Shown here: piece after piece, positions 2,566 to 46,434 of the stretch
How the letters are laid out: each line of letters opens with the position of its first letter
How positions within the stretch are numbered: the first letter of the stretch is position 1
Source of the DNA: Actinomycetota bacterium
Lineage (GTDB): Bacteria; Actinomycetota; UBA4738; HRBIN12
Assembly: GCA_036556385.1 (NCBI GenBank)
Contig: DATBJQ010000090.1
Coordinates: 7,057-71,056, forward strand
Direction of reading: 5' to 3'
DNA length: 64,000 nucleotides
Notes under the pieces: generated by a model
What the model was told of the DNA's origin: nothing
What the model saw: the letters and a program-made list of their open reading frames with translations, nothing else
The model's database searches: none
Program-made: the position numbers and the translations under genes

Positions 2566-4637
2566 CGCCGGTCCGGCGCCACCCCCTCGAGGTCTGCCCC
2601 GAGCGCCGCCGGGTCGGTCACGGGCAGCCGGCAGGCGAACCGTTCGCACACGTAGGCGGTGGGCCGACCGTCGACGGCGACCCGGTCGCGGAGCAGGGGC
2701 ACGGCTGCGAGCGCGGCCGCGTCGTCCGGCTCCGCGACCGACAGCACGGCGTTGGGGACGAAGCGGGCGCGCAGGACCTCGTCGACGAGCTCCCGCGTCG
2801 CGCGGTCGCCGAGCGCGCCGATCACCGCGACCTCCCGCGCCGGCCCGATCAGCAGGTCGAGCGCGCAGAGCGCTTGCCCGAACCCGGTCGGGTAGCGCTG
2901 CATCGCGTCGCGGACCAGGCGGAGCGCCCCGACGGCGGCTCGCTCGTAGGCCGCGTCCCCGGTGAGCAGCGCGAGCCGCAGGAGCGTGAGGGCCGCCGCC
3001 GAGTTCCCGCTCGGGGTCGCGTTGTCCTCGGCGTCCCTGGGCCGGACCACCAGCCGCTCCGCGTCGTTCGCGGTCTGCAGGAACCCGCCCAGCTCGGGAT
3101 CCGCGAAGCGGGCGAGCAGGCCGTCGGCCAGCTCCCGCGCCCGCACGAACCAGGCGACCTCGCCGGTCGCCGCGTGCAGCGTCAGGAAGGCGTCGGCCAG
3201 CAGCGCGTGATCGTCGGCGAAGCCGAGCGTGGTGCCGGCCCCGGCGCGCCAGGAGCGCAGGAGTCGGCCCTCCGCGTCGCGGAGGCGATCCCACAGGAAG
3301 CTCCCGCAGACCACGGCCGCCTCCACGAACGAGGGCCGGTCGAACGCCCGTCCGGCGCGCGCGAGCGCGTCGATCGCGAGGGCGTTCCAGGCGGTGAGGA
3401 CCTTGTCGTCGGTCCCGGGGTGGACGCGCCGGTCACGGGCGGCGAACAGGACGGGGATCGCGGCCTCGACCTGCTCCACCAGGTCGCCGGGCCCCAGATC
3501 GTGCGCGGCGGCCACCGCGGCGACCGGGACGGGCCGCCAGAGCACGTTCGTCCTGCCGTCTTCGCCCAGCCAGTTGCCCTCCGGCGTCGCCCCCAGCGCC
3601 TCGGCGACCGCCTCTCCGGCCAGGGAGCGGAGGTCGTCCCACGACCACGTGAAGAAGCGTCCCTCCACACCCTCGCTGTCCGCGTCCTGCGACGAGGAGA
3701 ACCCGCCCTCGTCCTGCCGCAGCTCGCGGAGCAGGTAGTCGAGGGTGGTCTCGGCCACGGTCCGGAACCGCTCGTTGCGCGTCAGGAGCCAGGCGTTGGT
3801 GAACACCCGCGCCAGCTGGGCGTTGTCGTACAGCATCTTCTCGAAGTGGGGGACGTGCCATGCGGCGTCCGTCGCGTAGCGCGCGAACCCGCCGCCGACC
3901 TGATCGTGCATCCCGCCGTCGGCCATCCGTTCGAGCGTGAGCACGACCATCTCCAGGGCATCGGGGATCCCTCGCCGTGCGGCGCGGAGCAGGAACTCGA
4001 GGACCATCGGCTGGGGGAACTTGGGCGCGCCGCCGAAGCCGCCCCACCGCGGGTCGAAGCTCCTGCGCAGCCCCGTCATCGCGGCGTCCGTCACGGCCTC
4101 GCCCAGCGGCTCGTCGGACCCGGAGAGCAGGCCGGCACCGGCGATCGCCTCGGTGACCCGGCCGCTCTGCGCCTCGATCTCGTCGCGTCGCGTGGCCCAG
4201 GCCTCCGCAAGCCCCTCGAGCACACGGCGGAACGAGGGCAGCCCGTGCCGCGGTTCGTCGGGGAAGTACGTGCCGGCGAAGAACGGCCTGCCGTCCGGGG
4301 TCAGCCACACGGACATCGGCCACCCCCCCTGCCCGGTCATCGCCTGGACGGCGTCCATGTAGATCCGGTCGATGTCCGGCCGCTCCTCCCGGTCGACCTT
4401 GATCGAGACGAACCGCTCGTTCAGCAGCGTGGCCGTGGCCTCGTCCTCGAACGACTCCCGCTCCATCACGTGGCACCAGTGGCACGCCGCGTAGCCGACC
4501 GAGAGGAACACCGGCTTGTCCTCGGTCCGCGCCCGCTCGAACGCCTCGTCGCCCCAGGGGTACCAATCCACCGGGTTGCCCGCGTGCTGCAGCAGGTAGG
4601 GGCTCGAGGCGCCGGCCAGACGGTTCGTGGGGGTCAC
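2562..4637 (-). CDS. Thioredoxin-domain protein YyaL/DUF255 (N-acylglucosamine-2-epimerase-like six-hairpin glycosidase fold)
   Basis: '[54 protein letters not shown]...[12 protein letters not shown]' is the signature N-terminus of DUF255/YyaL. The ORF track starts at 4802, but the conserved N-terminus points to a GTG near 4637, which also avoids overlapping the divergent regulator gene. Confidence 0.8.
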
Positions 4638-4710
4638 GCCTCCAGTCTGGCCGCGAGCGGTGGCGAACGGCACCCGTTTCAGCACACCCCCCGGCCTGCC
4701 GATGCCCTGG

Positions 4711-5388
4711 ATGGACATGGGCGATCTCCGCGTGCTCGTCGTGGGCGACGGGACCACCTTGGCGCAGGACCTCCGACTGGTGCTCGGCCGCCGCGCCGGC
4801 ATCCGCGTCTCCGAGCCGGTGTCGGAGGCGAAGGCGGCGTTGGCCGCGGTCCTGGCGGGCCGCGCCGACCTGGTGGTCGTCGACCTCGACCACGACCCGC
4901 AGGGTCTGCCGACGATCTCGCGACTGCGTGACGGCGCGCCGCGCGTCCGGATCCTGGCGGCCGGCGGGGCGTTCGACGAGGCGGCGGCCGCGGCGGTCCT
5001 GTCCGCCGGCGGGTGCGGCCTGCTGCCGCGCTCCTACGAGCCGCAGGTCCTGACGGAGGCGTTCCGGCGAGCCGTGGACGGCGGGGCGGTGCTGCCTGAT
5101 CTCCCGGCCGATCTTCCGGCCGCCGCCCTCGGGCGGCTCCCGGTGTCCGCACACACGGCCCCGGCCGAGGACCCCTTCGCGAGCCTCACCCCGCGCGAGC
5201 TCGAGGTGCTGGAGCTGCTGGCGTCGGGCCGGTCCACCCACGAGGTGGCCGCGACCCTCGGGATCAGCGCCACGACGGTGCAGAGCCACGTCAAGAACCT
5301 CCTGGCGAAGCTCGGGGTCCACTCCAAGGTCGAGGCGGTGCGGCTCGCGTGGCGCAGCGGCGTGGTCGCGACCCCGGTCGGCGCCTGA
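4711..5388 (+). CDS. NarL/FixJ (LuxR-HTH) family response regulator with a degenerate receiver domain
   Basis: C-terminal '[45 protein letters not shown]' is a LuxR HTH. The N-terminal receiver-like fold keeps the Asp ('DLVVVDLD') but lacks the conserved Thr/Ser and Lys. Start placed at the internal Met ([11 protein letters not shown]). Confidence 0.75.
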
Positions 5389-5424
5389 TCCGCCGCGGCC
5401 GGCCACCCGGCGTAGCCTTCGACC

Positions 5425-6090
5425 ATGTCGTCTGAGCCGGTCCGCGTCCTGGCGATCGTGGGTCATCCCGTGATCGTCGGGGTCCTCCGGCTCGCGTGCG
5501 ACGCGGAGCCGTCCCTGCGGATCGTCGGCGAAGCCTTCGCGGGGACCCGGGGTCTCGAGCTCCTGCGGAAGGCGCCGGCCGACGTCGTCGTGGTGGACCT
5601 CGAGCTCGCCGAGCCGGCGGGCGTGCAGGTGGTCCGGTCGCTCCGCGAGGACGGGTACGTCGGCGGCGTGCTGGCGATCTCGGACCGGAGCGACGGGGCG
5701 ACCGTCCTGCAGGCCCTGCGATGGGGGGCGGACGGGTACCTGACCAAGGCGGACGGTCTGCGCGAGGTGGGGCCGGCGCTGCTGCGGGTGGCCCGCGGGC
5801 AACGCGTCGTCGATCCGTCGCTCGAACAGGCGGCGGTGCGCGAGCTGGGCAGGTTCGCCCGTCAGGTGCGCCAGGGGAACGACGCCGCCGGTACCGTGAC
5901 CCCCCGGGAGCGCCAGATCCTGCAGCTCCTGGCCGAGGGCCTCACGATGCGGCAGGTCGCACGCCGTCTCGAGATCTCGCCGCGAACCGTCGAGACCCAC
6001 GTGGCCAAGCTGTATCGGAAGCTCGACGTGCGCACGCGCGTGCAGGCGATCGCGCGGGCGGCATCGATCGGGCTGATCGACCTCGAGTGA
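5425..6090 (+). CDS. NarL/FixJ (LuxR-HTH) family response regulator lacking the acidic Mg-binding pair in the receiver
   Basis: LuxR HTH 'VTPRERQILQLLAEGLTMRQVARRLEISPRTVETHVAKLYRKLDV'. The receiver has Asp (VVVVDLEL), Ser and Lys (YLTK), but beta1 is 'LAIVGHPV' with no DD. Confidence 0.8.
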   Translation: MSSEPVRVLAIVGHPVIVGVLRLACDAEPSLRIVGEAFAGTRGLELLRKAPADVVVVDLELAEPAGVQVVRSLREDGYVGGVLAISDRSDGATVLQALRWGADGYLTKADGLREVGPALLRVARGQRVVDPSLEQAAVRELGRFARQVRQGNDAAGTVTPRERQILQLLAEGLTMRQVARRLEISPRTVETHVAKLYRKLDVRTRVQAIARAASIGLIDLE

Positions 6091-6190
6091 CCGCCCCCGG
6101 GCTCAGGAGCGGTCGCCGGAACGCCGATGACGCCGGTGAGGCCCCGTCACCCGGGCCCGATCGGCCGAGTAGGCTGCGCAGGGAGCACGC

Positions 6191-6898
6191 GTGAGCAGAC
6201 GAGACACCCCCCCGACGACCGCGCCCGGTCCGCGACGGCGGCTCGGTGTGATCGTGGTCGATGCCCTGCCGGTCGTCCGTGCCGGGCTCCGGGCGCTGAT
6301 CGAGGAACGCCCCGACCTCGAGGTGCTGGGGATCGCGGGCAACGCCACCTCCGCGCTCGAGGGCATCGCGAAGGTCCGTCGCTCGCGCGTGACCGTCCTG
6401 GTGGGACTCGGGCTCACCGGTGAGCACGACGCCTTCTGGCTGATCCGCACCGTCCGCGAGCGGTTCCCCGGGCACGCCGTGCTGGCGGTCGGGGCCAACG
6501 CGGACCCGGCCGTGGTGAGCCGCGCCCTCTTCGTGGGCGCGGACGGCTTCGTGGACAAGAACGTCGAGCCGGCCGCGTTCGTCGACGCGATCCACCGGGT
6601 GGCGGAGCGCGAGATGGTGCTGGCCGGCCCCGCGACCGGCACGGTCGGGCAGATCGCGATGGGGATCGAGGCGCGCCGCGACCTGGAGGCCCGCCTCACC
6701 GACCGGGAGCGGCAGGTCCTGTCGGTGGCCGCCGAGGGCCTCACCGCCCGCGAGATCGCCGACCGGCTCGGGGTGCGGGAGCGGACGATCACGACCCACC
6801 TCGCACGGATCTACGGGAAGCTGGGCGTCGGGAACCGCCTGGCCGCGATCCAGACGGCGACGCGGACCGGGATCGTCACGGTCGGCGCCGCCGAGTAG
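6191..6898 (+). CDS. NarL/FixJ (LuxR-HTH) family regulator with a pseudo-receiver (phospho-acceptor Asp apparently replaced)
   Basis: LuxR HTH 'LTDRERQVLSVAAEGLTAREIADRLGVRERTITTHLARIYGKLGV'. The receiver-like N-terminus has 'TVLVGLGLTGEHD' where the phospho-acceptor Asp should be. Confidence 0.75.
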   Translation: MSRRDTPPTTAPGPRRRLGVIVVDALPVVRAGLRALIEERPDLEVLGIAGNATSALEGIAKVRRSRVTVLVGLGLTGEHDAFWLIRTVRERFPGHAVLAVGANADPAVVSRALFVGADGFVDKNVEPAAFVDAIHRVAEREMVLAGPATGTVGQIAMGIEARRDLEARLTDRERQVLSVAAEGLTAREIADRLGVRERTITTHLARIYGKLGVGNRLAAIQTATRTGIVTVGAAE

Positions 6899-6901
6899 CG
6901 C

Positions 6902-8392
6902 TCACGCGCGCACGAAGACCGCCGACTCCTCGTCCTCGTACACGAGCCGCCACCCCGGGTCGTCGCGCAGCTCGTCCTGCAGCGTCCAGTCGCGGAGGTC
7001 CACGACGATCGCGTCGGCCTCCCACCGGTCCAGGACCTCGCGCCACGCCGCGCCCGTGCCCCGCAGGTCCTGGTACTCGTACCAGAGCTCGGTCGGGAAC
7101 AGCTCGATCCGGGGATCCACGAACAGCGGCATCTCGGGGAGGGCGTACTCGAACCACGACCCCCACGGCTGCGGCACGACGAGGCGTGAGCCGGGCGGGA
7201 CGGCCTCGCGGACGGCCTCCACGGCGGGCTGGGGTGCCTCGCGGAGCAGCAGTTCCACTTGCCGAGCCTCGTTCGGGGCTCGCCACCACGGGAGGAGCAG
7301 CACGATCGCGAGCGACAACCCTCCGACCAGGGTCGCGTTCATCATCGGGTTCCCACGGCGGCTCGCCGGCTGCGCGACCGCGTCGGGGAGCAGACCGGCG
7401 ACCACGACGGGAACGACGAGGCCCCACCACAGGAGGCCCCGGATCGCCGGCAGGGCCAGCAGGAAGAACGTGCCGAGCCACAGCAGGTCCCACCAGGGGG
7501 CGGGTATGCGGCGCCGGGCGAGGAACGCAGCCACCCCGAGCGCGGACAAGAAGAAGGTCGCGCCCGCGTACCCGTTGAGCGAGGTCGGCTCCCATTCCGA
7601 CACGGCGTTGCGCACGATCGGGTTGGTCGTCAGGTCGAAGACGTAGGTCCACACGCCGAAGCCGTAGGGGTTCACCAGCGTCGCGAGCACGCTCGCCACG
7701 CCCACCCACAGCAGGGTCTTCATCGTCGAGCGGTGGGTGACGACGTCCTCGAGGAACGCCAGGCCCACCATCAACGGGATCAGGAAGAAGCTCCCGTGGA
7801 GGTTCGCCCATGCCAGCGCGAGGACCGGGATGATCCACAGCCGGCGGGGCCGCTCGCCACGACCCGCAAGCGCCCACAGCGTGAGGCAGAACATCGGGAC
7901 GACCAGCAGCTGCGGCCGGTACGCCATCGTGGGCATCGCCAGGACGTAGCCGCCGAGGGTCAACAGCGCGGCGGGCCGCGGCGCCGCTCCCCGGCGCCGG
8001 CACGCCAGGTACACGATCCCGAACGAGCCACCGATCAACGCGGCGCCGAGGACCGTGAGGGCCGCCCAGCCCCCGGCGCGATGGGTCAGGGCGAACACGA
8101 CCTGCGCCCCCCACTGCTGGTTCACCCACGGCTCCCCGGCCACGGTGAACGTCATGAGATCCGTGCGGATCAGCTCGCCGCGCTCGAGCATGTCGAGGCC
8201 GACACGGACGTGGTACGCGAGGTCGATCGCCACCATCCTGCTCAGGAGCGAGACGATCACCGGTATCAGGACGGTGAGGCTCGCCCAGACCCGATCGAGG
8301 GTGAGCCCGCGTCCGGGCGGGACCGTCTCGGCGAGGGCCTCCGCGTCGGCGGTGGCGCCGGTGACGAGCAACCGCGAGCCGGTGTCCTCCAC
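6902..8392 (-). CDS. Polytopic membrane protein, probable GT-C-fold glycosyltransferase (PMT/ArnT/oligosaccharyltransferase-like) with a C-terminal extracytoplasmic domain
   Basis: About 11 predicted TM helices. An early extracytoplasmic loop carries 'ERGELIRTDLMTFTVAGEPWVNQQW'. A soluble C-terminal domain of about 120 aa follows the last TM. The gene is divergent from the flp promoter region. Confidence 0.4.
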   Translation of the reverse strand: MEDTGSRLLVTGATADAEALAETVPPGRGLTLDRVWASLTVLIPVIVSLLSRMVAIDLAYHVRVGLDMLERGELIRTDLMTFTVAGEPWVNQQWGAQVVFALTHRAGGWAALTVLGAALIGGSFGIVYLACRRRGAAPRPAALLTLGGYVLAMPTMAYRPQLLVVPMFCLTLWALAGRGERPRRLWIIPVLALAWANLHGSFFLIPLMVGLAFLEDVVTHRSTMKTLLWVGVASVLATLVNPYGFGVWTYVFDLTTNPIVRNAVSEWEPTSLNGYAGATFFLSALGVAAFLARRRIPAPWWDLLWLGTFFLLALPAIRGLLWWGLVVPVVVAGLLPDAVAQPASRRGNPMMNATLVGGLSLAIVLLLPWWRAPNEARQVELLLREAPQPAVEAVREAVPPGSRLVVPQPWGSWFEYALPEMPLFVDPRIELFPTELWYEYQDLRGTGAAWREVLDRWEADAIVVDLRDWTLQDELRDDPGWRLVYEDEESAVFVRA

Positions 8393-8472
8393 GGACGGAT
8401 GCTACGGCACGATCCCCGCAGGTCTTGAGCGGGCCGCCGGACGGGCACGGGGGTAGGTCCCTGTACCCGAAG

Positions 8473-8504
8473 CTACGTACGTAGGACTACGTAGCCTGCG
8501 TACG
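8473..8504. promoter_or_regulatory. Cluster of TACGTA-core palindromes (CTACGTACGTAG, CTACGTAG, CGTACG) in the flp promoter region
   Basis: A perfect 12-bp palindrome at 8473-8484, a perfect 8-bp palindrome at 8487-8494, and CGTACG at 8499-8504. This locally AT-richer segment lies about 110-135 bp upstream of the flp ATG, between divergent genes. Confidence 0.45.
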
Positions 8505-8609
8505 GGAAACTCGGAATACCATGCGCCGCTCCGCCTCTGTACGGTCCCACGTGGGCGGAGTAGCATCCTTCCGCTCCAGAACGGGCTCAGGAGGAAAGGG
8601 GGTGACAGG

Positions 8610-8822
8610 ATGTTCCTTCGTCTCTACTCGGGTGTGACCACCTGGTGGACCGACCTCAAGGGCCGTGCCCAGGAGGAGGGTGGCGCGACCGCGGTTGAGT
8701 ACGCGCTGATGGTTGCCCTCATCGCGGTGGTGATCATCGCCGCCGTGGCCTTCATCGGCCAGAGCGCCAGCACGCAGTTCAACAGCGTCGGCACGTGTGT
8801 CGACGACCCGGCGAGCTGCTAA
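8610..8822 (+). CDS. flp: Flp-family type IVb pilin (Flp/Fap prepilin)
   Basis: 70 aa. 'EGG/ATAVEYALMVALIAVVIIAAV' is a class-III prepilin leader with a G^A cleavage site and the Glu/Tyr Flp motif. A strong AGGAGG RBS sits 8 nt upstream. The C-terminal tail carries two Cys. Confidence 0.9.
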   Translation: MFLRLYSGVTTWWTDLKGRAQEEGGATAVEYALMVALIAVVIIAAVAFIGQSASTQFNSVGTCVDDPASC

Positions 8823-9077: not shown

Positions 9078-9920
9078 ATGAGGTCACGAGGTCTGGTCGT
9101 CGCCATCGCCGTGGTGCTTGCGGTCCTGGCGGCGGTGGGAGTCATCGTCTATACGAACAACGTCGAGAAGACGGTCACCGAGGAGAACACGACGCCCGTC
9201 GTCGTGTCGGATCAGGACATCACCACGGGGACCGCGCTCGACCCGCTGCTCGATCAGGGCGCGTTCAAGACGATCAACGTCCCGGACGCGACGCTGGTTG
9301 ACGGCGCCGTCACCACCGAGGACCAGCTCCGGGGCGCGGTCACGTCGGCCCCGATCTACGCGAACGAGCAGATCCCCGTGAGCCGTCTCGGTGAGACGCC
9401 CACGGACCTCCTCGGCGTGAGCGAGGGCCACGTGGGCATCGGCATGGAGATCGGCGGCCCGCAGGGCGCGAACGGCGCGATCCAGCAGGGCAGCCAGATC
9501 GTGATGTACGCCACGTTCGCGCAGGGCACCGTCGTGACCCGCGACGCCGTCTCGAAGCTCCTGTCCGAGCAGCAGATCCAGGAGTTCTTCGAGGCCGTCC
9601 AGAGCGGCGCCGACCCGGCGTCGGTGTCCAACGCCGCTGTCCTCGTGACCAACTTCGACTTCACCGTCACGCTCGTGAAGAGCGTCAAGGTCCTGGCGAT
9701 CCAGAACCCGACCGTCGACGAGACCACCGGACGCAAGAACGGCGGCTCCTCGACGCTCGTTCTGGACCTCCTCCCCACGGACGCGCAGACCGTGATCTTC
9801 GCCAACGAGCAGGCCAAGCTGTGGCTGGGTCTCCTTCCCGAGAAGAACGAGGAGGGCTACGATTCGGAGGCCGTGTTCGGCATCCCGATCGAGAAGCTGA
9901 CGGGAGTTGAGAGGGGTTGA
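9078..9920 (+). CDS. cpaB: Flp pilus assembly protein CpaB/RcpC (SAF domain)
   Basis: N-terminal TM anchor (LVVAIAVVLAVLAAVGVIVY), then a SAF/RcpC-like domain. The gene sits between flp and cpaE. Confidence 0.8.
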   Translation: MRSRGLVVAIAVVLAVLAAVGVIVYTNNVEKTVTEENTTPVVVSDQDITTGTALDPLLDQGAFKTINVPDATLVDGAVTTEDQLRGAVTSAPIYANEQIPVSRLGETPTDLLGVSEGHVGIGMEIGGPQGANGAIQQGSQIVMYATFAQGTVVTRDAVSKLLSEQQIQEFFEAVQSGADPASVSNAAVLVTNFDFTVTLVKSVKVLAIQNPTVDETTGRKNGGSSTLVLDLLPTDAQTVIFANEQAKLWLGLLPEKNEEGYDSEAVFGIPIEKLTGVERG

Positions 9921-11149
9921 CCGAGGCAAGCGTCGTCGCCGTCGGGACGCCGCAGTCCTTCCGCCAGCAGCTGGCGCGGTCCCTTGAGGTCGAGGTCGAC
10001 GAGGTCGGCTGGGTCCAGTCGGCCACGGCGGCCGAAGAGCTCCTGATCACCGCCTACAGCCCGGTGGACGTGCTGGTGCTGTCGCCGGAGGTCAAGGAGC
10101 CCGACGCCCTGGGGCTGGCGGAGTTCGTCGGCCGCACGGCACCCGGCACGGCCATCGTGCTGGTCCGTGACCACACCTGGAACGGGCTGCTCCCGGCGGC
10201 GATGCGCGCGGGCATCCGCGACGTCGTCGACCTGACCCAGGGCAGCGACGAGCTCCGCGAGGCCGTGGAACGGGCGATCGTCTGGGCCACGAACCTGCGT
10301 TCGGCCAACCTGACCCAGGTGCGGTCCGACGGCTCCAAGTCGGTCCGGGGCCACATCATCTCGGTCTTCTCGTCGAAGGGCGGCTCGGGCAAGACGTTCC
10401 TGACGGCCAACCTGGCCGCCGCGATCGCCGACGTCACCGACGAGGACACGGCCGCGGTCGACCTCGACGTCGACATGGGTGACGTGTTCACCTACTTCGG
10501 CAGGGAGCCGTCGGCGACGGTCCACGACCTGATGGAGCTCGGCGAGGGCGTCGAGCACGACCGGATCCGCGAGGTCGGCGTGGAGGTCGCCCCCCGGACG
10601 TGGGCGTTCGGCGCCCCGCCCGATCCGGCGGCCGAGACGCCGGCGGGAGAGGCGGTGGGCAAGTTCCTGCGGGCGATCCGCAGCGACTTCTCGTACGTGG
10701 TCGTCGACGCGTCCGTGGACTACTCGGACCTCGCGCTCGTCTGCTTCGACCTCTCGGACATGATCTGCCTGGTCACCGGGCTCGACGTGGTGGGCGTGAA
10801 GCACCTGTCCAAGGCGCTCGACACGCTGCTCACGATCGGGCTGCCGCGCGAGCGCTTCCGCGTCGTGTTGAACCGCGCCGACTCCAAGGTCGGTCTGGAC
10901 GCCGCGGACGTGGAGCGCGTCATGAAGATCTCGGTCGACGCCATGATCCCCTCGAGCCGGCTCGTGCCGACGTCCCTCAACAAGGGCCGTCCGGTCGTGC
11001 TGGACGAGCCGGGGTCGGCCGTGTCGCAGTCGATCCACAACCTCGCGATCCGCCTCACCGGCGCCGTGGAAGCCGGCGCGTCGGCGGACCTCGACTCGGC
11101 TGCGGAACCCCGTCGGAAGAAGGGCTTGTTCGCCCGGATGAAGAGCTGA
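9917..11149 (+). CDS. cpaE: Flp pilus assembly ATPase-like protein CpaE/TadZ (pseudo-receiver plus ParA/MinD-type P-loop)
   Basis: 'ISVFSSKGGSGKTFLTANLAAAIAD' is a deviant Walker A. The N-terminal receiver-like domain lacks catalytic residues. An ATGA overlap couples it to cpaB. Confidence 0.85.
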   Translation: MTEASVVAVGTPQSFRQQLARSLEVEVDEVGWVQSATAAEELLITAYSPVDVLVLSPEVKEPDALGLAEFVGRTAPGTAIVLVRDHTWNGLLPAAMRAGIRDVVDLTQGSDELREAVERAIVWATNLRSANLTQVRSDGSKSVRGHIISVFSSKGGSGKTFLTANLAAAIADVTDEDTAAVDLDVDMGDVFTYFGREPSATVHDLMELGEGVEHDRIREVGVEVAPRTWAFGAPPDPAAETPAGEAVGKFLRAIRSDFSYVVVDASVDYSDLALVCFDLSDMICLVTGLDVVGVKHLSKALDTLLTIGLPRERFRVVLNRADSKVGLDAADVERVMKISVDAMIPSSRLVPTSLNKGRPVVLDEPGSAVSQSIHNLAIRLTGAVEAGASADLDSAAEPRRKKGLFARMKS

Positions 11150-11171: not shown

Positions 11172-12491
11172 ATGTCCCTCGCAGATCGCCTCGCGAAGGC
11201 GCAGCAGCGCGACCGCATCGCGGAGGTTCGCTCCCGCGTGCAGGAGCGTCTGGTCGAGTCCCTCGGCCCGCGCCTGTACGACGCGACCCTCTCGGACACC
11301 GAGCTCGAAGGCCTGGTCCACCAGCGCCTGCGTGAGCTCCTGGACGAGGAGGAGGGTCCGCTCTCCGCGCAGGAGAAGCTCCTCATCGTCCGTCAGATCG
11401 GCGACAGCGTCCTGGGTCTGGGGCCACTGGAGCCGTTCGTCCGTGACCCCGAGGTCACGGAGATCATGGTCAACAACTGGGACACGATCTACGTGGAGCG
11501 CGCCGGCAAGCTCTTCTGGACCGGCACGAAGTTCCACGACGAGCAGCAGCTCCGCCGGACGATCGACAAGATCGTGGCCAAGGTGGGCCGCCGCGTCGAC
11601 GAGGCCTCGCCCTACGTGGACGCCCGGTTGCCCGACGGCTCGCGTGTCAACGCGATCATCCAGCCGCTCGCGATCGATGGTCCGTCGCTGACGATCCGGA
11701 AGTTCGCCGCCGATCCCTACCAGGCCGACGATCTGATCGAGTTCGGCACCATGACCTCGTCGGTCTCCCGCTTCCTCGAGGCCTGTGTCCGCGGACGCAT
11801 CAACGTCCTGGTCGCGGGCGGAACGGGCGCCGGCAAGACCACCACCCTCAACGTGATCTCGTCGTTCATCCCGGACGACGAGCGCATCATCACGATCGAG
11901 GACGCCGCCGAGCTGAAGCTCCAGCAGCCCCACGTGGTGCGGCTGGAGTCCCGGCCACCGAACATCGAGGGCAAGGGGCAGGTCACGATCCGCGACCTCG
12001 TCCGCAACGCCCTGCGCATGCGGCCCGACCGCATCGTCGTCGGTGAGGTCCGTGGCTCGGAGGCCCTGGACATGCTCCAGGCGATGAACACCGGTCACGA
12101 CGGCTCGATCAGCACGATCCACTGCAACAGCCCGCGTGACGCCCTGAGCCGTCTGGAGACGATCACGATGATGGCGGGGATGGAGCTGTCCGCCCGGTCG
12201 ATCCGGGAGCAGATCGCGTCGGCGATCCAGCTGATCGTCTACCAGCAGCGCCTCAAGGACGGGACCCGCCGGTTCACCCACGTGACCGAGGTCGCGGGGA
12301 TGGAGGGTGAGGTCATCACCCTGCAGGACATCTTCCTGTTCGACTTCCAGGCGGGGATCGACGAGGAGGGGCGGTTCCGTGGTCGGCTGAAGTCCACGGG
12401 TCTGCGGCCGAAGTTCCTCGACAAGCTCGCCGAGCGCGGCGTGTACCTCGACCCCGAGGTCTTCGCCCTGGAGCCCAAGGGGAGCTCGTGA
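11172..12491 (+). CDS. cpaF: Tad secretion ATPase CpaF/TadA (VirB11/GspE family)
   Basis: '[37 protein letters not shown]' (Walker A plus Asp box) and '[14 protein letters not shown]' (His box). Confidence 0.9.
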
Positions 12492-13507
12492 TGCTGGCCG
12501 CGTCCTTCTGGGACAGCTCGACGGCGCAGATCGTCCTGGCCGTCCTGGTCGGGCTGACCGCCTTCCTCCTGACCTGGTTCCTGTTGGGCAGCGCCGCTCG
12601 GGCCCGCAAGGACCGCGAGATCGAGGAGCGGATGCGCGCGGTGATCAAGCCGGGGGAGCAGCCCCGCGGCGCGGTCGCCGGGACCAGCACCAAGTCCGCC
12701 GCGGCCGGGTGGATCCCCGGCGGCGTGACCGCCTTCGCCACGCGGTTCGCCGAGGCGCGCGGCTTCAGCGAGCGCCTCGACTCACAGCTCGAGGCAGCCG
12801 GCGTCTCCCTGCGATCGGGCGAGTTCGTGGTGGCCTCGGTCGTGGCGGCGCTGGTGTTCGGGCTCCTCGGCGCGGCGCTCCTGGGCAACTTCCTGCTGGC
12901 CCTGGTGCTGGGCGTGATCGGCGCGATCGTCCCCTCGATCGTGCTGCGGTCCTCGCTGCAGCGCCGGGCGGAGAAGCTGCGTGAGCAGCTGCCGGACGTC
13001 CTGACGATCCTGGCTTCGTCGCTGCGTGCCGGCCACAGCTTCCTGCAGTCGTTGGACACCGTGGCCAAGGAGATCGCGCCGCCGGCGGCGGCCGAGTTCC
13101 AGCGTGTGGTCGCGGAGATCCGTCTGGGACGCCCGGCCGAGGACGCCTTGGAGGCGCTGGCCGAGCGGGTCGGCAGCCCCGACTTCAAGTGGGCGGTGCT
13201 CGCCGTGAACATCCAGCGCGAGGTCGGCGGCAACCTGGCAGAGATCCTCGACAACGTCGCGGACACGCTCCGCGAGCGGGCCATGCTCCGCCGCCAGGTC
13301 CGGGTGCTGACCGCTGAGGGCCGGCTCTCGGCCTGGGTCCTGGCGTTGCTGCCCGTGGGCATCGCGCTCTACATCACCGCAGTGAATCCCGAGTACATCG
13401 GCACGCTCGTCACCGAGACGATGGGCCTCATCATGCTGGCGGGGTCGCTCATCCTGCTGGTCGCGGGCGTGCTCTGGATGAGGAAGATCGTGAATATCGA
13501 TGTCTGA
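12488..13507 (+). CDS. tadB: Tad pilus inner-membrane platform protein TadB (T2SS F domain)
   Basis: Polytopic membrane protein with a GspF-like cytoplasmic domain. Overlaps the cpaF stop and the tadC start. Confidence 0.8.
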   Translation: MMLAASFWDSSTAQIVLAVLVGLTAFLLTWFLLGSAARARKDREIEERMRAVIKPGEQPRGAVAGTSTKSAAAGWIPGGVTAFATRFAEARGFSERLDSQLEAAGVSLRSGEFVVASVVAALVFGLLGAALLGNFLLALVLGVIGAIVPSIVLRSSLQRRAEKLREQLPDVLTILASSLRAGHSFLQSLDTVAKEIAPPAAAEFQRVVAEIRLGRPAEDALEALAERVGSPDFKWAVLAVNIQREVGGNLAEILDNVADTLRERAMLRRQVRVLTAEGRLSAWVLALLPVGIALYITAVNPEYIGTLVTETMGLIMLAGSLILLVAGVLWMRKIVNIDV

Positions 13508-14444
13508 CGTCTGGCTCTTCCTCGCTGTTGGGTGCCTGTTCCTCGCGATCGTGCTGGTCGGCATCGCCGTCGATCAGCAGATGGCCGAGAAGCGCCGTGC
13601 CGTGCGCCTGCTCGAGACCCAGATCGTGGGCCCGTCCGGGACGATCGCGCCGAACGTCGACGTGCGCGAGCAGGAGATGCAGGAGAACTTCGGCACGCGC
13701 GTGCTCGTGCCGATCCTGTCGCGGGCCGGCCGGGTCGCGCGACGGATCACGCCGCTGGACACGCGCGACCGGATCGCCCGCAAGCTGATCCTGGCCGGCA
13801 GCCCCGTGGGGTGGGACGCCGAGCGCGTCCTGGCCTTCAAGGTGATCGGCGCGATCGGCGGGTTCGTCCTGTCGCTGGTCATCATGCAGCTGTTCGACCT
13901 GTCGGCCCTGCTCCAGCTCGTGGTGATCGGTCTGCTCACCGTCGTGGGCTTCATCGCTCCGGATGCGATCTTGAACAACCGCGTCGAGGAGCGGCAGCGC
14001 GAGATCCTGCGCACGCTGTCCGACACGCTGGACCTGCTCACGATCAGCGTCGAGGCGGGCCTCTCGCTCAACGCCGCGATCGCCCAGGTCGTGCGGAACG
14101 TGCCCGGGGTCCTGTCGGCGGAGTTCGCCCGCATGCTCCAGGAGATCCAGCTGGGCGTCCCCCGGTCCGAGGCCTTCCGCAACCTGGCCGAGCGCACCGA
14201 CGTCGAGGAGCTGAACGCCTTCGCCCTGGCGATGATCCAGGCCGACGTGTTCGGTGTGTCGATCTCCAGCGTGCTCCGGACCCAGGCTCAGCAGCTGCGG
14301 ATCAAGCGCCGGCAGGCGATCGAGGCACGGGCCCAGCAGACGCCCGTGAAGATCGTCTTCCCGCTGGTGCTCTGCATCCTGCCCGCCCTGTTCGTGGTCA
14401 TCGTGGGGCCCGGCGCGATCCGCATCTTCCAGGCCTTCAGCTGA
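13500..14444 (+). CDS. tadC: Tad pilus inner-membrane platform protein TadC (T2SS F domain)
   Basis: Paralogous to TadB in GspF-like topology. It is the last gene of the operon, and its stop lies inside a 15-bp tandem duplication. Confidence 0.8.
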   Translation: MSDVWLFLAVGCLFLAIVLVGIAVDQQMAEKRRAVRLLETQIVGPSGTIAPNVDVREQEMQENFGTRVLVPILSRAGRVARRITPLDTRDRIARKLILAGSPVGWDAERVLAFKVIGAIGGFVLSLVIMQLFDLSALLQLVVIGLLTVVGFIAPDAILNNRVEERQREILRTLSDTLDLLTISVEAGLSLNAAIAQVVRNVPGVLSAEFARMLQEIQLGVPRSEAFRNLAERTDVEELNAFALAMIQADVFGVSISSVLRTQAQQLRIKRRQAIEARAQQTPVKIVFPLVLCILPALFVVIVGPGAIRIFQAFS

Positions 14445-24646: not shown

Positions 24647-25209
24647 GCCCGCGGACTGCGGTGGCCGTTCGTCGCCGGGCACGCGTGTCCCTCCGGGTCG
24701 ATCGGGTTGCCACAGAGCTGGCAGGTGGGGCGGCCCCGCTCGGCCACCTCGGACCCGTGGCGCGAGAGCGCCAGCATCTGCTCGCGGGTGGCCCACAGCC
24801 GGATCGTCTCGGGGTCGTGATCCAGCGGAGGGCGGGGATCGTCCTCGTCCTCCGCCTCCGGCTCGTACTCGGTGATCTCCAGCAGGAACCGGTCCTGGTC
24901 CTGGTCGTAGCCGATCGAGAGGCGGCCGACGCGCCACCGGGCGTCGAGCGGCTCTTCCAACGTCATCTCCTCGTCGCCCGGCCCCGGGCCGGTCTCGACC
25001 GAGACGTCGGCGAGGAGCTCGAGGACGGAGGTGGCCAGCAGCTGGACCTGCTGCTTCTCCACGACCAGCGTGATGACGTCGCCGCCGGAACGAGCTTGGA
25101 GGTAGAACGTGCGCATCCCGGGCTCGCCGACGGCGTCGGCGGTGATCCGGTCGACCTCCCCCAGGTCCACCGTCCTATCCTCGCAGCTTCGCCGAGCGCC
25201 CGCGCCCAC
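24643..25209 (-). CDS. DUF3090-family protein (conserved actinobacterial partner of the SCO1664 family)
   Basis: 'GEPGMRTFYLQARSGGDVITLVVEKQQVQLLA...ACQLCGNPIDPEGHACPATNGH' matches the DUF3090 pattern, including the C-terminal Cys/His motif. The start is possibly a GTG near 25170. Confidence 0.6.
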   Translation of the reverse strand: MGAGARRSCEDRTVDLGEVDRITADAVGEPGMRTFYLQARSGGDVITLVVEKQQVQLLATSVLELLADVSVETGPGPGDEEMTLEEPLDARWRVGRLSIGYDQDQDRFLLEITEYEPEAEDEDDPRPPLDHDPETIRLWATREQMLALSRHGSEVAERGRPTCQLCGNPIDPEGHACPATNGHRSPRA

Positions 25210-25861
25210 GACCGTCCGGCGACGCCTCCCACGGGGGGTGGGCCGCCGCGCCGAACCGATCCAGGCCTCCGGTCTCGTTCATCAGGACGAGGTAGGCGTT
25301 CCCGTCGCTGCCGACCTCCACGACGGAGACCGACGCGGGGTCGGCGACGAACCGCTGGAACGCGTCGAGCGGAGCGGCGGTGAAGTGGGCCAGGAGCATG
25401 CGGACGATGTCGCCGTGCGTCGCGATCGCGACGCGCCCGCGCCGGTGTCGGCGCGCGATGCGCCGAACCTCGAGCACGGCGCGCTCCTGCGCGTCCGCGA
25501 AGCCCTCCCCGCCGGGGAAGCCGAACGCCGACGGGTGCGTCTGCACGACCGTCCACTCCGCGCGCTTGCGTCGCAGCGCCGACAGGCGCTTGCCGGTCCA
25601 CGTCCCCGCGTCCATCTCGATCAGCTCGGGCCGTTCGACGATCGGGAGCCGCTTGTCGGCAGCCAACGGCTGGACCGTCTGCACGCACCGCTCGAGGGGG
25701 CTGGAGTACACGGCCGTGAGACGGATCGGCGCCATCCGGCGAGCCAGGTCCTCGGCCTGCGCCTGACCGCGGGCGTCCAGGTGCACACCCGGCGACTGCC
25801 CGTACAGGATCGTGCCGGTCTGGGCGGTCAGCCCGTGACGGATCAGGAAGAGGGTCGCCAT
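25175..25861 (-). CDS. Histidine phosphatase (phosphoglycerate-mutase-like) family protein, third member of the conserved cassette
   Basis: 'MATLFLIRHGLTAQTG' is the RHG motif. '...SSPLERCVQT...' and 'AIATHGDIV' (second catalytic His). Confidence 0.8.
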   Translation of the reverse strand: MATLFLIRHGLTAQTGTILYGQSPGVHLDARGQAQAEDLARRMAPIRLTAVYSSPLERCVQTVQPLAADKRLPIVERPELIEMDAGTWTGKRLSALRRKRAEWTVVQTHPSAFGFPGGEGFADAQERAVLEVRRIARRHRRGRVAIATHGDIVRMLLAHFTAAPLDAFQRFVADPASVSVVEVGSDGNAYLVLMNETGGLDRFGAAAHPPWEASPDGRGRGRSAKLRG

Positions 25862-25898
25862 CGGGCGTCAGCCTACGGGTGCGGAGCGGGCCACCGGT

Positions 25899-27059
25899 TC
25901 ACGAGGCGGCCGTCGGGAGCGAGACCTCGAACGTGGAGCCCGATCCAAACTCGCTCTGGACGCTCACCACGCCGCCGTGGTTCTCGGCGACGTGCCGGAC
26001 GATCGCGAGACCGAGGCCCGTGCCGCCGGTCTCCCGGGAGCGCGCGCGATCGACACGATAGAAGCGCTCGAACACGCGAGGGAGGTCGCGACCCGGGATC
26101 CCGACGCCCGTGTCGCGGACGACCACCGTGGCCTGCCCGTCCCGCTGGAGCACCTGCACCCGCACGGTCCCACCGCCCGGTGTGTAGCGGACCGCGTTGT
26201 CGACGAGGTTGCGCACCATCAGGGCGAGGTCGCGCGCCGAGCCCCGGACGATCGGGTGATCCCGAGCCTGCCAGTCCAGCGTGATCCCGGCCGCGCCCGC
26301 GTCGTCCTCGAGCCGCTGGACCTCCTCGCTCACCACGCCGTCGAGCGCGACGAGCTCCGAGAGCTCGCTCCCGGTCTCCAGACGGGAGAGGTCGAGGAGG
26401 TCCGAGATGATCCGCGACAGCCGGAGCGCCTCTCGTTCGAGCTGCTCCGTGAAGCGCCCGGCGGCGTCGGGGTCGTCGATCGCCCCGTCGTGGAGCGTCT
26501 CGGCGGCCGCGCGGATCGAGGCCACGGGTGTCTTGAGCTCGTGCGAGGCGTTCGCGACGAAGTCACGGCGGATCGCGTCGATGCGTCGGGCCTCGGTGAC
26601 GTCGCGGACGACCAGCAGCACGGTGCCGTCGCCGCCGACCGGGCGGGCCGCGGCCCGGAGCCAGCGCGACGGCGCGCCGGTCTCGGCCTCGACCTCCACC
26701 AGCTCGCCGTCGGCGCTCGCGCGCCGCACGGCATCCCGCAGGTCGAGCGGAAGCAGGTGCTCCGCGTCGGCCGGGACGGCGCCCAGGTGGCGGGCGAGGG
26801 CCGCGTTCTCGAAGACCCGGCGACCCTCGGGGTCGAGCAGCAGCACGCCCTCGTCCATCGAGTCCAGGACCAGCGAGCGGACCTCGCGGACCTCGGCCAC
26901 GGACCGCTCCTGCGCCTCGAGTGTGTCCCGCGTCCGGGCGAGCGCCCGCTCGAGCGGCCGGCGCGCGCGTCGCGCTCGCGCGATCAGGATGGCGCCGGTC
27001 ACCACGGCGCCCGCGACCGCGGCCACCACCAGCGCGAGCACGCCGCCGACCCCATCCAT
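25899..27059 (-). CDS. PAS-domain sensor histidine kinase, PhoR/SenX3-like
   Basis: TM anchor, PAS-like region, H-box 'FVANASHELKTPVASI', N/G-boxes 'VRNLVDNAVRYTPGGG' and 'GGTGLGLAIVRHV'. Divergent from pstS across the PHO-box region. Confidence 0.85.
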   Translation of the reverse strand: MDGVGGVLALVVAAVAGAVVTGAILIARARRARRPLERALARTRDTLEAQERSVAEVREVRSLVLDSMDEGVLLLDPEGRRVFENAALARHLGAVPADAEHLLPLDLRDAVRRASADGELVEVEAETGAPSRWLRAAARPVGGDGTVLLVVRDVTEARRIDAIRRDFVANASHELKTPVASIRAAAETLHDGAIDDPDAAGRFTEQLEREALRLSRIISDLLDLSRLETGSELSELVALDGVVSEEVQRLEDDAGAAGITLDWQARDHPIVRGSARDLALMVRNLVDNAVRYTPGGGTVRVQVLQRDGQATVVVRDTGVGIPGRDLPRVFERFYRVDRARSRETGGTGLGLAIVRHVAENHGGVVSVQSEFGSGSTFEVSLPTAAS

Positions 27060-27102
27060 CGAGTCGGAGTGTAGGAGCGAGACGGGGTCGGGGAGGGGGG
27101 GT

Positions 27103-27146
27103 GCTCACCGTCCGTTCCCCCGCCGTTCGCCGTGCGGTTCCCCCCG
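27103..27146. promoter_or_regulatory. PHO-box-like array: four consecutive 11-nt direct-repeat units with a GTTC(A/C)CC core (kinase-proximal)
   Basis: Units start at 27104, 27115, 27126 and 27137 (gCTCACCgtcc / gTTCCCCcgcc / gTTCGCCgtgc / gGTTCCCcccg). The 11-nt periodicity matches PhoP/RegX3-type direct-repeat operators of actinobacteria. Confidence 0.5.
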
Positions 27147-27185
27147 ACCAGCGCCTTCCGAGCCACCCGACTCAGCCGGCCCGTC

Positions 27186-27207
27186 GTTCACCGTCCGTTC
27201 ACCGACG
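27186..27207. promoter_or_regulatory. PHO box: two perfect 11-nt direct repeats GTTCACCGTCC / GTTCACCGACG about 75 bp upstream of pstS
   Basis: GTTCACC is the core of the Streptomyces PhoP direct-repeat unit. The spacing is exactly 11 nt, immediately upstream of a phosphate ABC transporter operon. Confidence 0.65.
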
Positions 27208-27279
27208 CGCCGACGGTGCGCCACATCGGCTCCCTAGCCTTCGCCACGGTCTGGATCCGACCGAGGGGGAGGGAAGAGC

Positions 27280-28308
27280 ATGCGGAGGTTCCGGAGGTTC
27301 GCGGGCATCCTGACCGGGGTGCTCGCGCTGTCGCTCGTGGCGGCCGCCTGCGGCGACGACGGGGGCGGCACGGACGAGCCGGTCTCGTCCCTGTCGGGCA
27401 CCGTGAACATCTCGGGCTCGTCCACCGTCCTGCCGATCGCGAACGCCGTCGCCGCGACCTTTAACGCCGCGAACCCCAACGTCGGGATCCGTGTGGACGG
27501 CCCCGGCACCGGTGACGGGATGGCGTTGTTCTGCACCGGCGACATCGACATCGCGGATGCGTCGCGCCCGATCGACGAAGAGGACGAGGTCCCGGTGTGC
27601 GAGGAGAACGGGATCGAGTACGTGGAGCTGGAGATCGCGCTCGACGGCGTGACCGTGATGACGAGCCCGGAGAACAGTGTCGAGTGCCTGAACAACGGTG
27701 ACCTCTACGCACTCTTCGGCCCCGAATCGACCGGGATCGACACCTGGAACGGCGCGGACGATCTCGCGAGCCAGGTCGGCGGGACGGGCGGCTTCCCGGA
27801 CGAGTCGCTCGAGATCACCGCCCCCGGGGAGGAGTCGGGGACCTACGACGCCTTCATCGACCTGGCCGGGATCGAGGACGTCGCTCTCGAGCAGGGTGTG
27901 CCCGAGGACGAGGCGGCGAGCCTCCGTGGCGACTACACGCCGTCGGCCGACGACAACGTGATCATCACGGCGATGGAGAGCTCCGCGGGATCGCTCGGGT
28001 TCGTCGGCTTCGCCTACGCGCAGAGCGCCGGCGAAGGGGTCAAGGAGATCCAGGTCGACGGCGGCGAAGGGTGCGTCGCACCGACCGCGGACACGATCGC
28101 GGACGGCAGCTACCCGCTCTCGCGGTCGCTGTACATCTACGTGAACACGACGAAGGCTGCCGAGAACCCGGCCGTCGCCGCGTTCGTGGACACGTTCCTG
28201 TCCGAGGCCGGCACCACCGAAGCGGTCACGGCAACCGGGTACGTGGTGCTCCCGGCGGATCGGATCGCCGCGTCGCAGGCGGCCTGGGACGAGGTGGCCC
28301 CCGCCTGA
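27280..28308 (+). CDS. pstS: Phosphate ABC transporter substrate-binding lipoprotein PstS
   Basis: Lipoprotein signal 'LALSLVAAAC'. 'GSSTVLPIANAVAATFNAANPNVGIRVDGPGTGDG' is the PBP superfamily. First gene of pstSCAB. Confidence 0.9.
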   Translation: MRRFRRFAGILTGVLALSLVAAACGDDGGGTDEPVSSLSGTVNISGSSTVLPIANAVAATFNAANPNVGIRVDGPGTGDGMALFCTGDIDIADASRPIDEEDEVPVCEENGIEYVELEIALDGVTVMTSPENSVECLNNGDLYALFGPESTGIDTWNGADDLASQVGGTGGFPDESLEITAPGEESGTYDAFIDLAGIEDVALEQGVPEDEAASLRGDYTPSADDNVIITAMESSAGSLGFVGFAYAQSAGEGVKEIQVDGGEGCVAPTADTIADGSYPLSRSLYIYVNTTKAAENPAVAAFVDTFLSEAGTTEAVTATGYVVLPADRIAASQAAWDEVAPA

Positions 28309-28391
28309 GACGGCACACACACGGGGAAGACCGAGCGCGTCGCGCTCGGTCTTCCCCCTCGACCTCGTAGGGGATAGGCTCGCCAACCCGG

Positions 28392-40755: not shown

Positions 40756-40828
40756 CGACGCGGGTCAGAGCGGGAGTGCCGCATGACCGGTCACCGTACC
40801 CGGCGGCCGGGGGTCACGGGGAACCAGG

Positions 40829-46381: not shown

Positions 46382-46434
46382 CCGGATCGAGCGTACCCTT
46401 TCGCGAGAGAGGAACACCGACGCAGGATGGGGGT

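Follow-up and report, generated by a model that had tools for sequence, protein, structure and literature searches.

Three adjacent NarL/FixJ-type pseudo-receiver regulators conserved beside the Tad/Flp pilus genes of uncultured Actinomycetota: candidate kinase-free regulators of the pilin promoter

A 64-kb stretch of actinobacterial DNA with a G+C content of ~72% (from contig DATBJQ010000090.1; the whole of this stretch is referred to here as the window) encodes three response regulators (RRs) head to tail, upstream of the genes for a Tad/Flp pilus. An original prediction made from this DNA had described them as NarL/FixJ-type regulators with differently degenerate receivers and no histidine kinase nearby, and had proposed that they form a cascade that is not driven by phosphotransfer and that may be controlled by a ligand or a partner. 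Each of the three genes, designated RR1, RR2, and RR3, encodes a receiver domain (REC) and a GerE-type helix-turn-helix (HTH) domain:

4711-5388, + strand: RR1, 225 aa, REC+GerE, ATG start at 4711
5425-6090, + strand: RR2, 221 aa, REC+GerE
6191-6898, + strand: RR3, 235 aa, REC+GerE, GTG start

All three proteins matched Pfam PF00072 (Response_reg; 32.3, 48.4, and 34.2 bits for RR1, RR2, and RR3, respectively, against a cutoff of 30.2) and PF00196 (GerE; 61-76 bits), which gives them the NarL/FixJ (LuxR-type) response-regulator architecture. The fold was seen in AlphaFold2 models of RR1 and RR3 built on homologue alignments (predicted local distance difference test scores of 87.1 and 86.7, respectively), both of which contained a (beta-alpha)5 receiver and a four-helix HTH; the best PDB matches of the RR3 model in Foldseek were VraR, RcsB, LiaR, ChrA, and NarL (E ~1e-13). 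No NCBIfam equivalog (NarL, NarP, MadR, MctR, UvrY, FixJ, and RcsB among those compared) was assigned, the best scores being 87-121 bits against cutoffs of 250-343, and all close relatives of the trio were proteins from metagenome-assembled genomes (MAGs) that have no specific names, the named ones carrying generic annotations. Some gene callers start RR3 at 6248 (216 aa); this shorter form was rejected because the N-terminal extension and the start codon align across orthologues, the GTG of RR3 falling on their ATG.

The best sequence match was NarL of Escherichia coli, which shares the fold of the trio and 30-34% identity over the full length. Identity among RR1, RR2, and RR3 was also 30-34%, no higher than that of each to NarL, so that a recent tandem duplication was rejected and the three are old paralogues. 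Unlike the trio, NarL has both a complete phosphorylation pocket and cognate kinases (NarX and NarQ). At the positions corresponding to K188, V189, and K192 of NarL, the base-contacting residues of NarL-DNA structures, RR1 has Q-S-K, RR2 has E-T-A, and RR3 has T-T-A. Recognition-helix residues were invariant or conservatively substituted within each RR family and differed between families; in the RR1 helix (Q-S-H-V-K), for instance, the only substitutions among homologues were S/T and K/R.

The pockets were mapped onto D13, D14, D59, S87, and K109 of NarL by phmmer against PDB sequences and by MAFFT alignment with ~120 homologues of each regulator:

RR1: G at D13, D at D14, D at D59, G at S87, R at K109
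RR2: V at D13, G at D14, D at D59, S at S87, K at K109
RR3: D at D13, A at D14, G at D59, V or G at S87, K at K109

RR1 (G12-D13, D58, G84 at the Thr/Ser position, and R107 at the Lys position in its own numbering) lacks the Thr/Ser and the Lys, as had been proposed, and lacks the first acidic residue as well. In RR2, V12-G13 take the place of the acidic Mg2+-binding pair ('AIVGHPV'), again as proposed, with D58, S85, Y105, and K108 retained. In RR3 (D24-A25, G72, V100-G101, and K123), Gly stands in for the acceptor Asp (TVLVGLGLTGEHD), with further losses at the second acidic position and at the Thr/Ser. Viewed by position, a complete acidic pair (DD) for Mg2+ is absent from RR1 (G-D), RR2 (V-G), and RR3 (D-A); the phospho-acceptor Asp at the end of beta3 is present in RR1 and RR2 and absent from RR3; and of the beta4 Thr/Ser and beta5 Lys, RR2 has both, RR3 the Lys only, and RR1 neither. 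The canonical D/D/D/T/K set is therefore incomplete in all three regulators, and because each aligned pocket lacks at least one of the five phosphotransfer residues, all are pseudo-receivers by the definition of Bourret et al. (PMC12632262). Since pseudo-receivers account for ~6% of bacterial receivers (PMC12632262), three adjacent ones whose defects recur in ~120 homologues each exceed what chance would give. Pockets of this kind suggest that activity is independent of Asp phosphorylation and that the proteins are active as made.

Each regulator has hundreds of close relatives, all of them metagenome or MAG proteins labelled Actinomycetota or Actinomycetes. RR3 homologues (~70% identical) carried in the five pocket positions D, then P/A, then G (119 of 120), then G, and finally K (120 of 120), which together with the sequence of RR3 itself bears out the Gly that had been tentatively read at the phospho-acceptor position. 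Across ~80 species, ~100 positions of RR3 were invariant, among them G72-L-G74, D80, W83, R86, R89, and R91 of the beta3-alpha3 region, where an RRxR stretch precedes beta3. With RR3 as the query, 1.84 billion representative proteins gave 120,367 hits at E <= 1e-3 and only 77 at E <= 1e-30. The ~55 nearest full-length clusters (50% identity) had a non-acidic second pair position, mostly G/A/S at the acceptor position, G at the Thr position, and a Thr-Thr recognition helix, and canonical DD-D-S/T-K proteins appeared only farther out. Among 117 RR2 homologues, the first acidic position was G/A/V in 101 and the second was G in 96, the acceptor D was kept in 116 along with the S/T, Y/F, and K, and 13 relatives still had Asp at the first acidic position. 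The Lys position of 119 RR1 homologues was never K (S/T/A/P/R), most keeping DD, D, and T, with further losses in the closest relatives of the window's RR1. The pocket defects are thus conserved family traits under strong purifying selection. Loss of catalytic residues in every member, and the absence of RR1 from a few lineages, are also what one might expect if the trio were the functionless, decaying relics of a former two-component system. The conservation pattern nevertheless effectively excludes functional decay, and we regard this explanation as extremely improbable: besides the RR3 figures just given, the reading frames are intact, the codon-position G+C of the RR genes is that of typical coding sequence, the recognition helices have been kept, and the gene order is fixed (see below). 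One 385-aa protein on an 809-kb ENA contig (P0135) matched the C-terminal part of RR1 and the entire RR2; it may be a genuine fusion, or it may result from a frameshift or an error of gene calling.

The surroundings of the trio in the window are as follows:

2562 to ~4667, - strand: DUF255/thioredoxin-like protein, divergent from RR1, exact start uncertain
6902-8392, - strand: multi-pass membrane protein, 496 aa, no Pfam or NCBIfam match
8610-8822, + strand: flp pilin gene, 70 aa, Pfam Flp_Fap, E = 4e-12
9078-9920, + strand: CpaB/RcpC-like, by Pfam and synteny
9917-11149, + strand: TadZ/CpaE, by Pfam and synteny
11172-12491, + strand: CpaF/TadA ATPase, by Pfam and synteny
12488-13507, + strand: TadB, by Pfam and synteny
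13500-14444, + strand: TadC, by Pfam and synteny

The membrane-protein gene converges on RR3 across a 3-nt gap and diverges from flp; its place between RR3 and flp slightly corrects the original prediction, which had put the trio directly upstream of the pilus genes. A scan with the RR3 alignment over one genome per GTDB species found 179 encoded relatives, and the best 80 loci, all from uncultured Actinomycetes/Actinomycetota MAGs, were retained with 10 kb on each side where the contig allowed; gene order was determined by tblastn with the window proteins, and counts refer to loci with enough sequence on the relevant side. The order was near-universal: DUF255 (-), RR1-RR2-RR3 (+), membrane protein (-), and flp-cpaB-tadZ-cpaF-tadB-tadC (+). 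RR2 was present in all 70 loci and RR1 in 65 of the 70, CpaF was present in 49 of 50, the DUF255/thioredoxin-like gene was the left neighbour in 53 of 59, and the 496-aa membrane protein adjoined RR3 in 36 of 50. The trio is therefore tied to the flp/tad pilus locus by strongly conserved synteny in ~70 species-level genomes of uncultured soil actinobacteria.

More distant loci (L088-L091), whose RR3-like pseudo-receivers were 44-49% identical to RR3, served as outgroups. L088 has an RR2-like gene, an RR3-like gene, a 491-aa membrane-protein gene (-), flp, and tadE, and has no RR1. L090, a 6.3-kb metagenome contig, carries five REC+GerE genes together with a prepilin peptidase and a GT87 glycosyltransferase, and includes two pairs in which an RR2-like gene is followed immediately by an RR3-like gene (4-nt overlap and 11-nt gap, respectively); it is an expanded version of the regulator module. 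In L091 an RR3-like gene lies directly upstream of tadE, rcpC, and tadZ, and in L089 one lies away from tad genes. The RR2-like member of the outgroup pairs retains the entire pocket (DD; the acceptor D, followed by Pro at D+4 and Gly at D+8; S/T; and K), which the RR3-like member does not, and the loss of the acidic pair in RR2 is specific to the lineage of the window. The conserved core is therefore a receiver/pseudo-receiver pair beside Tad genes, and because an RR2-type gene directly before an RR3-type gene recurs in such distant lineages, RR2 and RR3 are likely to cooperate. The proposed partner control is supported only indirectly, by this recurring adjacency.

The search for kinases returned the following two-component genes away from the trio:

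25899-27104, - strand: SenX3-like PAS-HisKA-HATPase_c kinase, the sole histidine kinase in the window
31777-32562, + strand: OmpR-type regulator in the pst region, SenX3/RegX3-like arrangement

Candidate genes in the window were picked by codon-position G+C and then compared with Pfam, and motif regular expressions run over all six frames found only the SenX3-like kinase; Pfam found no HisKA_3 (NarL-type) kinase among the candidate genes of the 64 kb. The SenX3-like kinase belongs to a pst phosphate-transport region 19 kb away from the trio, where it adjoins a histidine-phosphatase-family gene (region 25175-32562) and is separated from the OmpR-type regulator by pstS, pstC, and pstB genes. The left off-window flank, covered for a further 1.15 kb of a metagenomic contig, contained a full sulfatase gene preceded by a methyltransferase-like gene and no kinase, so that a cognate kinase immediately off the window was looked for and not found at that edge (~1.1 kb). 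Nor did phmmer with the window kinase detect a kinase at E <= 1 in the six-frame translations of the related loci (85 loci searched, with 80 from species-representative genomes), a HisKA-type query being less sensitive for HisKA_3, and Pfam found none among their commonest flanking genes (cyclophilin, Bcp/AhpC, GNAT, TadE/TadG, dehydrogenases, and glycosyltransferases), rare singleton open reading frames falling outside that scan. The statement that no histidine kinase is encoded nearby thus held for NarL-type kinases linked to the trio in the window, at its left edge, and in the related loci.

These results also bear on whether the three might be ordinary response regulators whose HisKA_3 kinase is encoded elsewhere, phosphorylation controlling at least RR1 or RR2 and RR3 acting as a modulator. 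In favour of this, D, S, Y, and K are still present in RR2, the pocket of its outgroup counterparts is complete down to the Pro at D+4 and the Gly at D+8, DD, D, and T survive in most RR1 relatives, and the majority of orphan regulators are of the typical kind (PMC12632262). Yet RR2, with V-G, has no Mg2+ pair, RR1 is short of one acidic residue, the Thr, and the Lys and its pocket is decaying further in the closest relatives, RR3 has no acceptor, and no kinase was found within up to 10 kb on each side in 80 genomes, all of which makes an unlinked kinase improbable.

Upstream of flp lies a conserved block of ~50 bp that includes the following features:

8478-8493, + strand: element A, TACGTAGGACTACGTA, that is, TACGTA-N4-TACGTA
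8504-8520, + strand: element B, GGGAAACTCGGAATACC, consensus GGGAAAC-N-CGGAATTCC, overlapping the -35 position
8540-8545, + strand: -10-like hexamer TACGGT (TAnnnT) of the flp promoter

Element A had 0-2 mismatches in all 59 distinct upstream regions aligned. TACGTA occurred at its position in 57 of 58 loci (24 per kb, versus 0.033 per kb elsewhere in 1.2 Mb), and the three copies in the window are all found here and nowhere else in it. The palindromes that had been noted at 8473-8504 are therefore real and conserved, as an operator-like element across the 59 aligned loci. Element B was more variable (<=2 mismatches in 48 of 59 loci), and of the defining positions of the hexamer, the first T was present in 53 of the 59 sequences and the A and the final T in all of them. 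With the transcription start taken as ~7 nt past the hexamer, B would extend from about -48 to -32 and A would be centred at about -67, the usual activator positions of a promoter with a weak -35. A generic scan of 4500-8700 for sigma-70 promoters and intrinsic terminators gave no promoter and one irrelevant terminator-like site. An alternative reading of element A is a 7-2-7 inverted repeat (TACGTAG-GA-CTACGTA) that begins with TAC, like the NarL heptamers, whose sites have the form TACYYMT. In the outgroup locus L088 the flp promoter retains element A and has no element B. An assignment of element B to RR1 was tried and not kept: the loci without RR1 (L064, L076, and L088) have a degenerate or absent B, but B is degenerate in 9 loci that bear RR1 too, which leaves a weak hint. 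In the inferred flp 5' leader, a conserved GGCGG...CCGC stem-loop (8553-8580) lies after the hexamer and ahead of the Shine-Dalgarno sequence, and may stabilise the mRNA or have a regulatory role.

The placement of these elements helps to judge whether the trio controls something other than the pilus (the DUF255 gene, the membrane protein and envelope glycosylation, or a dispersed regulon), its position beside tad being merely inherited order. DUF255 accompanies the trio as constantly as tad does (53 of 59 loci), the RR3-like gene of L089 is not beside tad, and A and B, lying between the divergent membrane-protein gene and flp, could serve either. The flp/tad link persists, however, where DUF255 is absent (L088, L090, and L091), the distance of element A to the flp -10 and start is fixed even where there is no membrane-protein gene (L008, L022, and L028), and no other transcription factor is conserved at the locus. 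We consider a different target unlikely.

Motifs resembling promoters of the sigma-28/WhiG type precede two of the three regulator genes:

4678-4705, + strand: sigma-28/WhiG-like motif before RR1, TTCA (4678-4681), 16 nt, GCCGATGC (4698-4705)
6102-6130, + strand: sigma-28/WhiG-like motif before RR3, CTCA (6102-6105), 17 nt, GCCGATGA (6123-6130)

Both match the published WhiG/FliA promoter consensus (PMC12871210, a 2026 preprint), in which actinobacterial WhiG1 sites have a -35 of CTCA, a spacer of N16-17, and a -10 of GCCGAACT, and WhiG2 sites have a -35 of T(A/C)AA, a spacer of N16, and a -10 of GCCGATAA. Alignment of the upstream regions brought out the motif before RR1 ([CT]TCA-N16-17-GCCGA[TA]) in 57 of 67 related loci and before RR3 ([CT]TCA-N16-17-GCCGAT[A/G]) in 69 of 78 (spacer of 17 in 60 and of 16 in 8). 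Of the 194 matches in 1.2 Mb, 126 were at these two sites, against 2-3 before any other tad gene and none before RR2. With the RR1 motif ending 6 nt ahead of the ATG (4711), the RR1 transcript probably has a very short leader or none. RR2 starts 36 nt past RR1 with no such motif of its own and is therefore probably co-transcribed with RR1. With one kind of promoter motif before both RR1(-RR2) and RR3, the arrangement points to co-regulation rather than to one regulator activating the next, and the proposed cascade in series found no support.

Response regulators are among the commonest predicted targets of the WhiG family (PMC12871210), and in Rubrobacter and Actinoplanes pilus genes are driven by sigma factors of the WhiG type (PMC8325347). 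Pilus expression there comes under a sigma-28-type promoter (-35 CTCA or TAAA, N16-17, -10 GCCGA...; PMC8325347, PMC12871210), as is proposed here, but the sigma factor acts directly on type IV pilus operons, whereas in the present locus the motif precedes regulator genes. Since flp itself has a TAnnnT -10 and upstream boxes, one extra regulatory tier is implied.

Because the trio is conserved next to the Tad/Flp genes and its pockets are degenerate, it most likely switches on the pilus genes without a kinase. The reading that we favour, with moderate confidence, is that the three are phosphorylation-independent regulators of the pilin promoter that are controlled through their own expression, with RR2 and RR3 possibly acting as a pair. 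A WhiG/FliA-family alternative sigma factor would set the amounts of RR1-RR2 and of RR3 through the promoters P(RR1-RR2) and P(RR3), and the proteins would be active as made. They would bind elements A and B and so activate the sigma-A-type flp promoter, which has a poor -35, and hence the tad operon. RR2 and RR3 would probably do so as a heterodimer, and RR1 would be a later addition with a different DNA specificity. Constitutively active pseudo-receivers that are regulated through their synthesis form one of the model classes in a recent review (section 18 of PMC12632262). The original prediction was thus supported in part: degenerate pockets and the lack of a linked kinase favour control that is independent of phosphotransfer, and the evidence points more to control through expression from a WhiG-type promoter, which that prediction had not considered, than to control of the kind that had been suggested.

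Several points weigh against this account. The -35 (C/TTCA) and -10 (GCCGATA/G) of the motif mix two published WhiG subtypes, and its two matches in the window do not by themselves reach significance (~0.6 expected), so that its weight comes from position and cross-species conservation; no WhiG/FliA (sigma-28-family) gene was seen in the window or the locus flanks. Binding of the regulators at the flp promoter is predicted from adjacency and conservation, and the symmetry of element A suits a homodimer as well as a heterodimer. The kinase search of the flanks had the limits of query and coverage given above. An unlinked kinase or acetyl phosphate may phosphorylate members of the wider RR1 and RR2 families, since most RR1 relatives lose only the Lys and the outgroup RR2-like proteins are canonical.

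A further alternative is that the remodelled receiver binds a small ligand or second messenger that switches the activity of the proteins, rather than their amount being regulated. The beta3-alpha3 region of RR3, with the RRxR stretch before beta3, is unusually invariant, and VpsT, a LuxR-type regulator that binds cyclic di-GMP (c-di-GMP), was among the structural matches of RR3 (ranks 47-50). In VpsT the c-di-GMP motif is W[FLM][TS]R, on a helix that extends the receiver. By this definition RR3 has no VpsT/CsgD-type motif: its invariant WLIR sits in alpha3 (residues 83-86) and has Ile for the Thr/Ser, and no other known ligand motif was recognised in it. The VpsT matches were weak (TM ~0.45), as for any REC+HTH protein, and the conserved RR3 residues could equally form a protein-protein interface. 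Although WhiG and pili are under c-di-GMP control in other Actinobacteria (PMC8325347), we found no evidence for the ligand control that had been suggested, and hold it to be quite unlikely. More speculative still, and improbable as a whole, is a combined scheme in which an obligate RR2-type/RR3-type heterodimer would read element A and the RR3 pocket (the Gly-Leu-Gly loop with W83, R86, R89, and R91) would bind a ligand such as c-di-GMP.

The locus and its relatives offered several further observations. The N-terminal domain of TadZ/CpaE (9917-11149, + strand) is weakly receiver-like (Response_reg, E = 0.017; TadZ_N, E = 0.083) and is a fourth degenerate receiver in the locus; such a domain is known for TadZ proteins. 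The 496-aa membrane protein is possibly a GT-C-type glycosyltransferase whose substrate would be the pilin or the envelope; it has a paralogue upstream near the sulfatase gene in some relatives, and in others a GT87-type glycosyltransferase lies close to the RR3 genes. Tandem flp genes, 3-4 in number, occur in several loci (L021, L070, and L074), and one MAG (MFD00392.bin.2.48) holds two full regulator-tad copies on different contigs (L009 and L010). Some related loci have an insertion between DUF255 and RR1 that encodes a 1136-aa cyclase-AAA-TPR protein (L044, 4916-8326), and the window encodes a TPR protein with an adenylate/guanylate cyclase domain at 46369-48393 (+ strand). At 40787-44632, a Peptidase_S51 (cyanophycinase-like) gene adjoins a cyanophycin synthetase-like gene, beyond which a second Mur-ligase-type gene is located at 51641-53338.

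Among characterised systems, the trio is most like BldM-WhiI of Streptomyces in its apparent mode of working. There sigma-WhiG transcribes whiI, and WhiI, an orphan regulator without the Lys and with one Asp of the pair missing, functions solely when paired with BldM in a heterodimer (PMC4125116). As in the trio, both proteins are of the REC+LuxR-HTH type, no kinase is linked, and control is apparently by expression. The residues missing from WhiI follow the pattern of RR1, the more complete pocket of BldM may be likened to that of the RR2-type proteins in the outgroups, and a candidate WhiG-type promoter motif stands before the degenerate RR1 and RR3. The systems differ in that three adjacent genes are involved here, that RR3 has no acceptor Asp, and that the likely target is a Tad pilus and not sporulation. 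A physical RR2-RR3 counterpart of the BldM/WhiI heterodimer is predicted, with indirect support from the strict co-occurrence of RR2 and RR3 (70 of 70 loci) and from the RR2-type/RR3-type gene pairs of the outgroups. CmrR-CmrT of Clostridioides difficile resembles L088 and L090 in that a receiver gene is followed by a pseudo-receiver gene (PMC12548384, PMC12632262), but CmrRST belongs to the OmpR family and includes the kinase CmrS, whereas the present regulators are of the NarL/LuxR type and have no linked kinase. SecR is an RcsB-like atypical regulator that has neither a phosphorylation motif nor a kinase and forms a stable dimer beside its target genes (PMC13199381). Like the trio it is a kinase-less NarL-family pseudo-receiver next to its likely targets and conserved in many genomes; it differs in being a single protein or two redundant copies that serve the serine cycle in Proteobacteria, as opposed to three different paralogues.

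A literature search for this regulator trio at actinobacterial tad loci found no description of it. The trio is a well-delimited addition to the known atypical NarL-family regulators and not a new kind of system; what sets it apart are three adjacent paralogues with complementary defects, an RR3 without an acceptor, a Tad pilus as the likely target, and proteins known only from uncultured Actinomycetota. How pseudo-receivers switch is described as a mystery in a 2025 review that discusses ~20 characterised cases (PMC12632262). The locus is a compact natural system for this question, combining three different conserved defects, a candidate target promoter, a candidate type of sigma factor, and an evolutionary series for RR2, and in vitro work with synthetic genes could address all of it without the organisms being in culture. 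If the acidic pair was indeed lost in the lineage of the window from an RR2 that is canonical in the outgroups, the series would record a stepwise loss of phosphorylation dependence. A ligand-binding RR3 pocket, if true, would together with the WhiG-type promoters amount to a kinase-free, second-messenger-linked Tad pilus circuit across a large uncultured actinobacterial lineage. The favoured account, for its part, predicts how Tad pilus expression would be wired in an abundant group of soil Actinomycetota.

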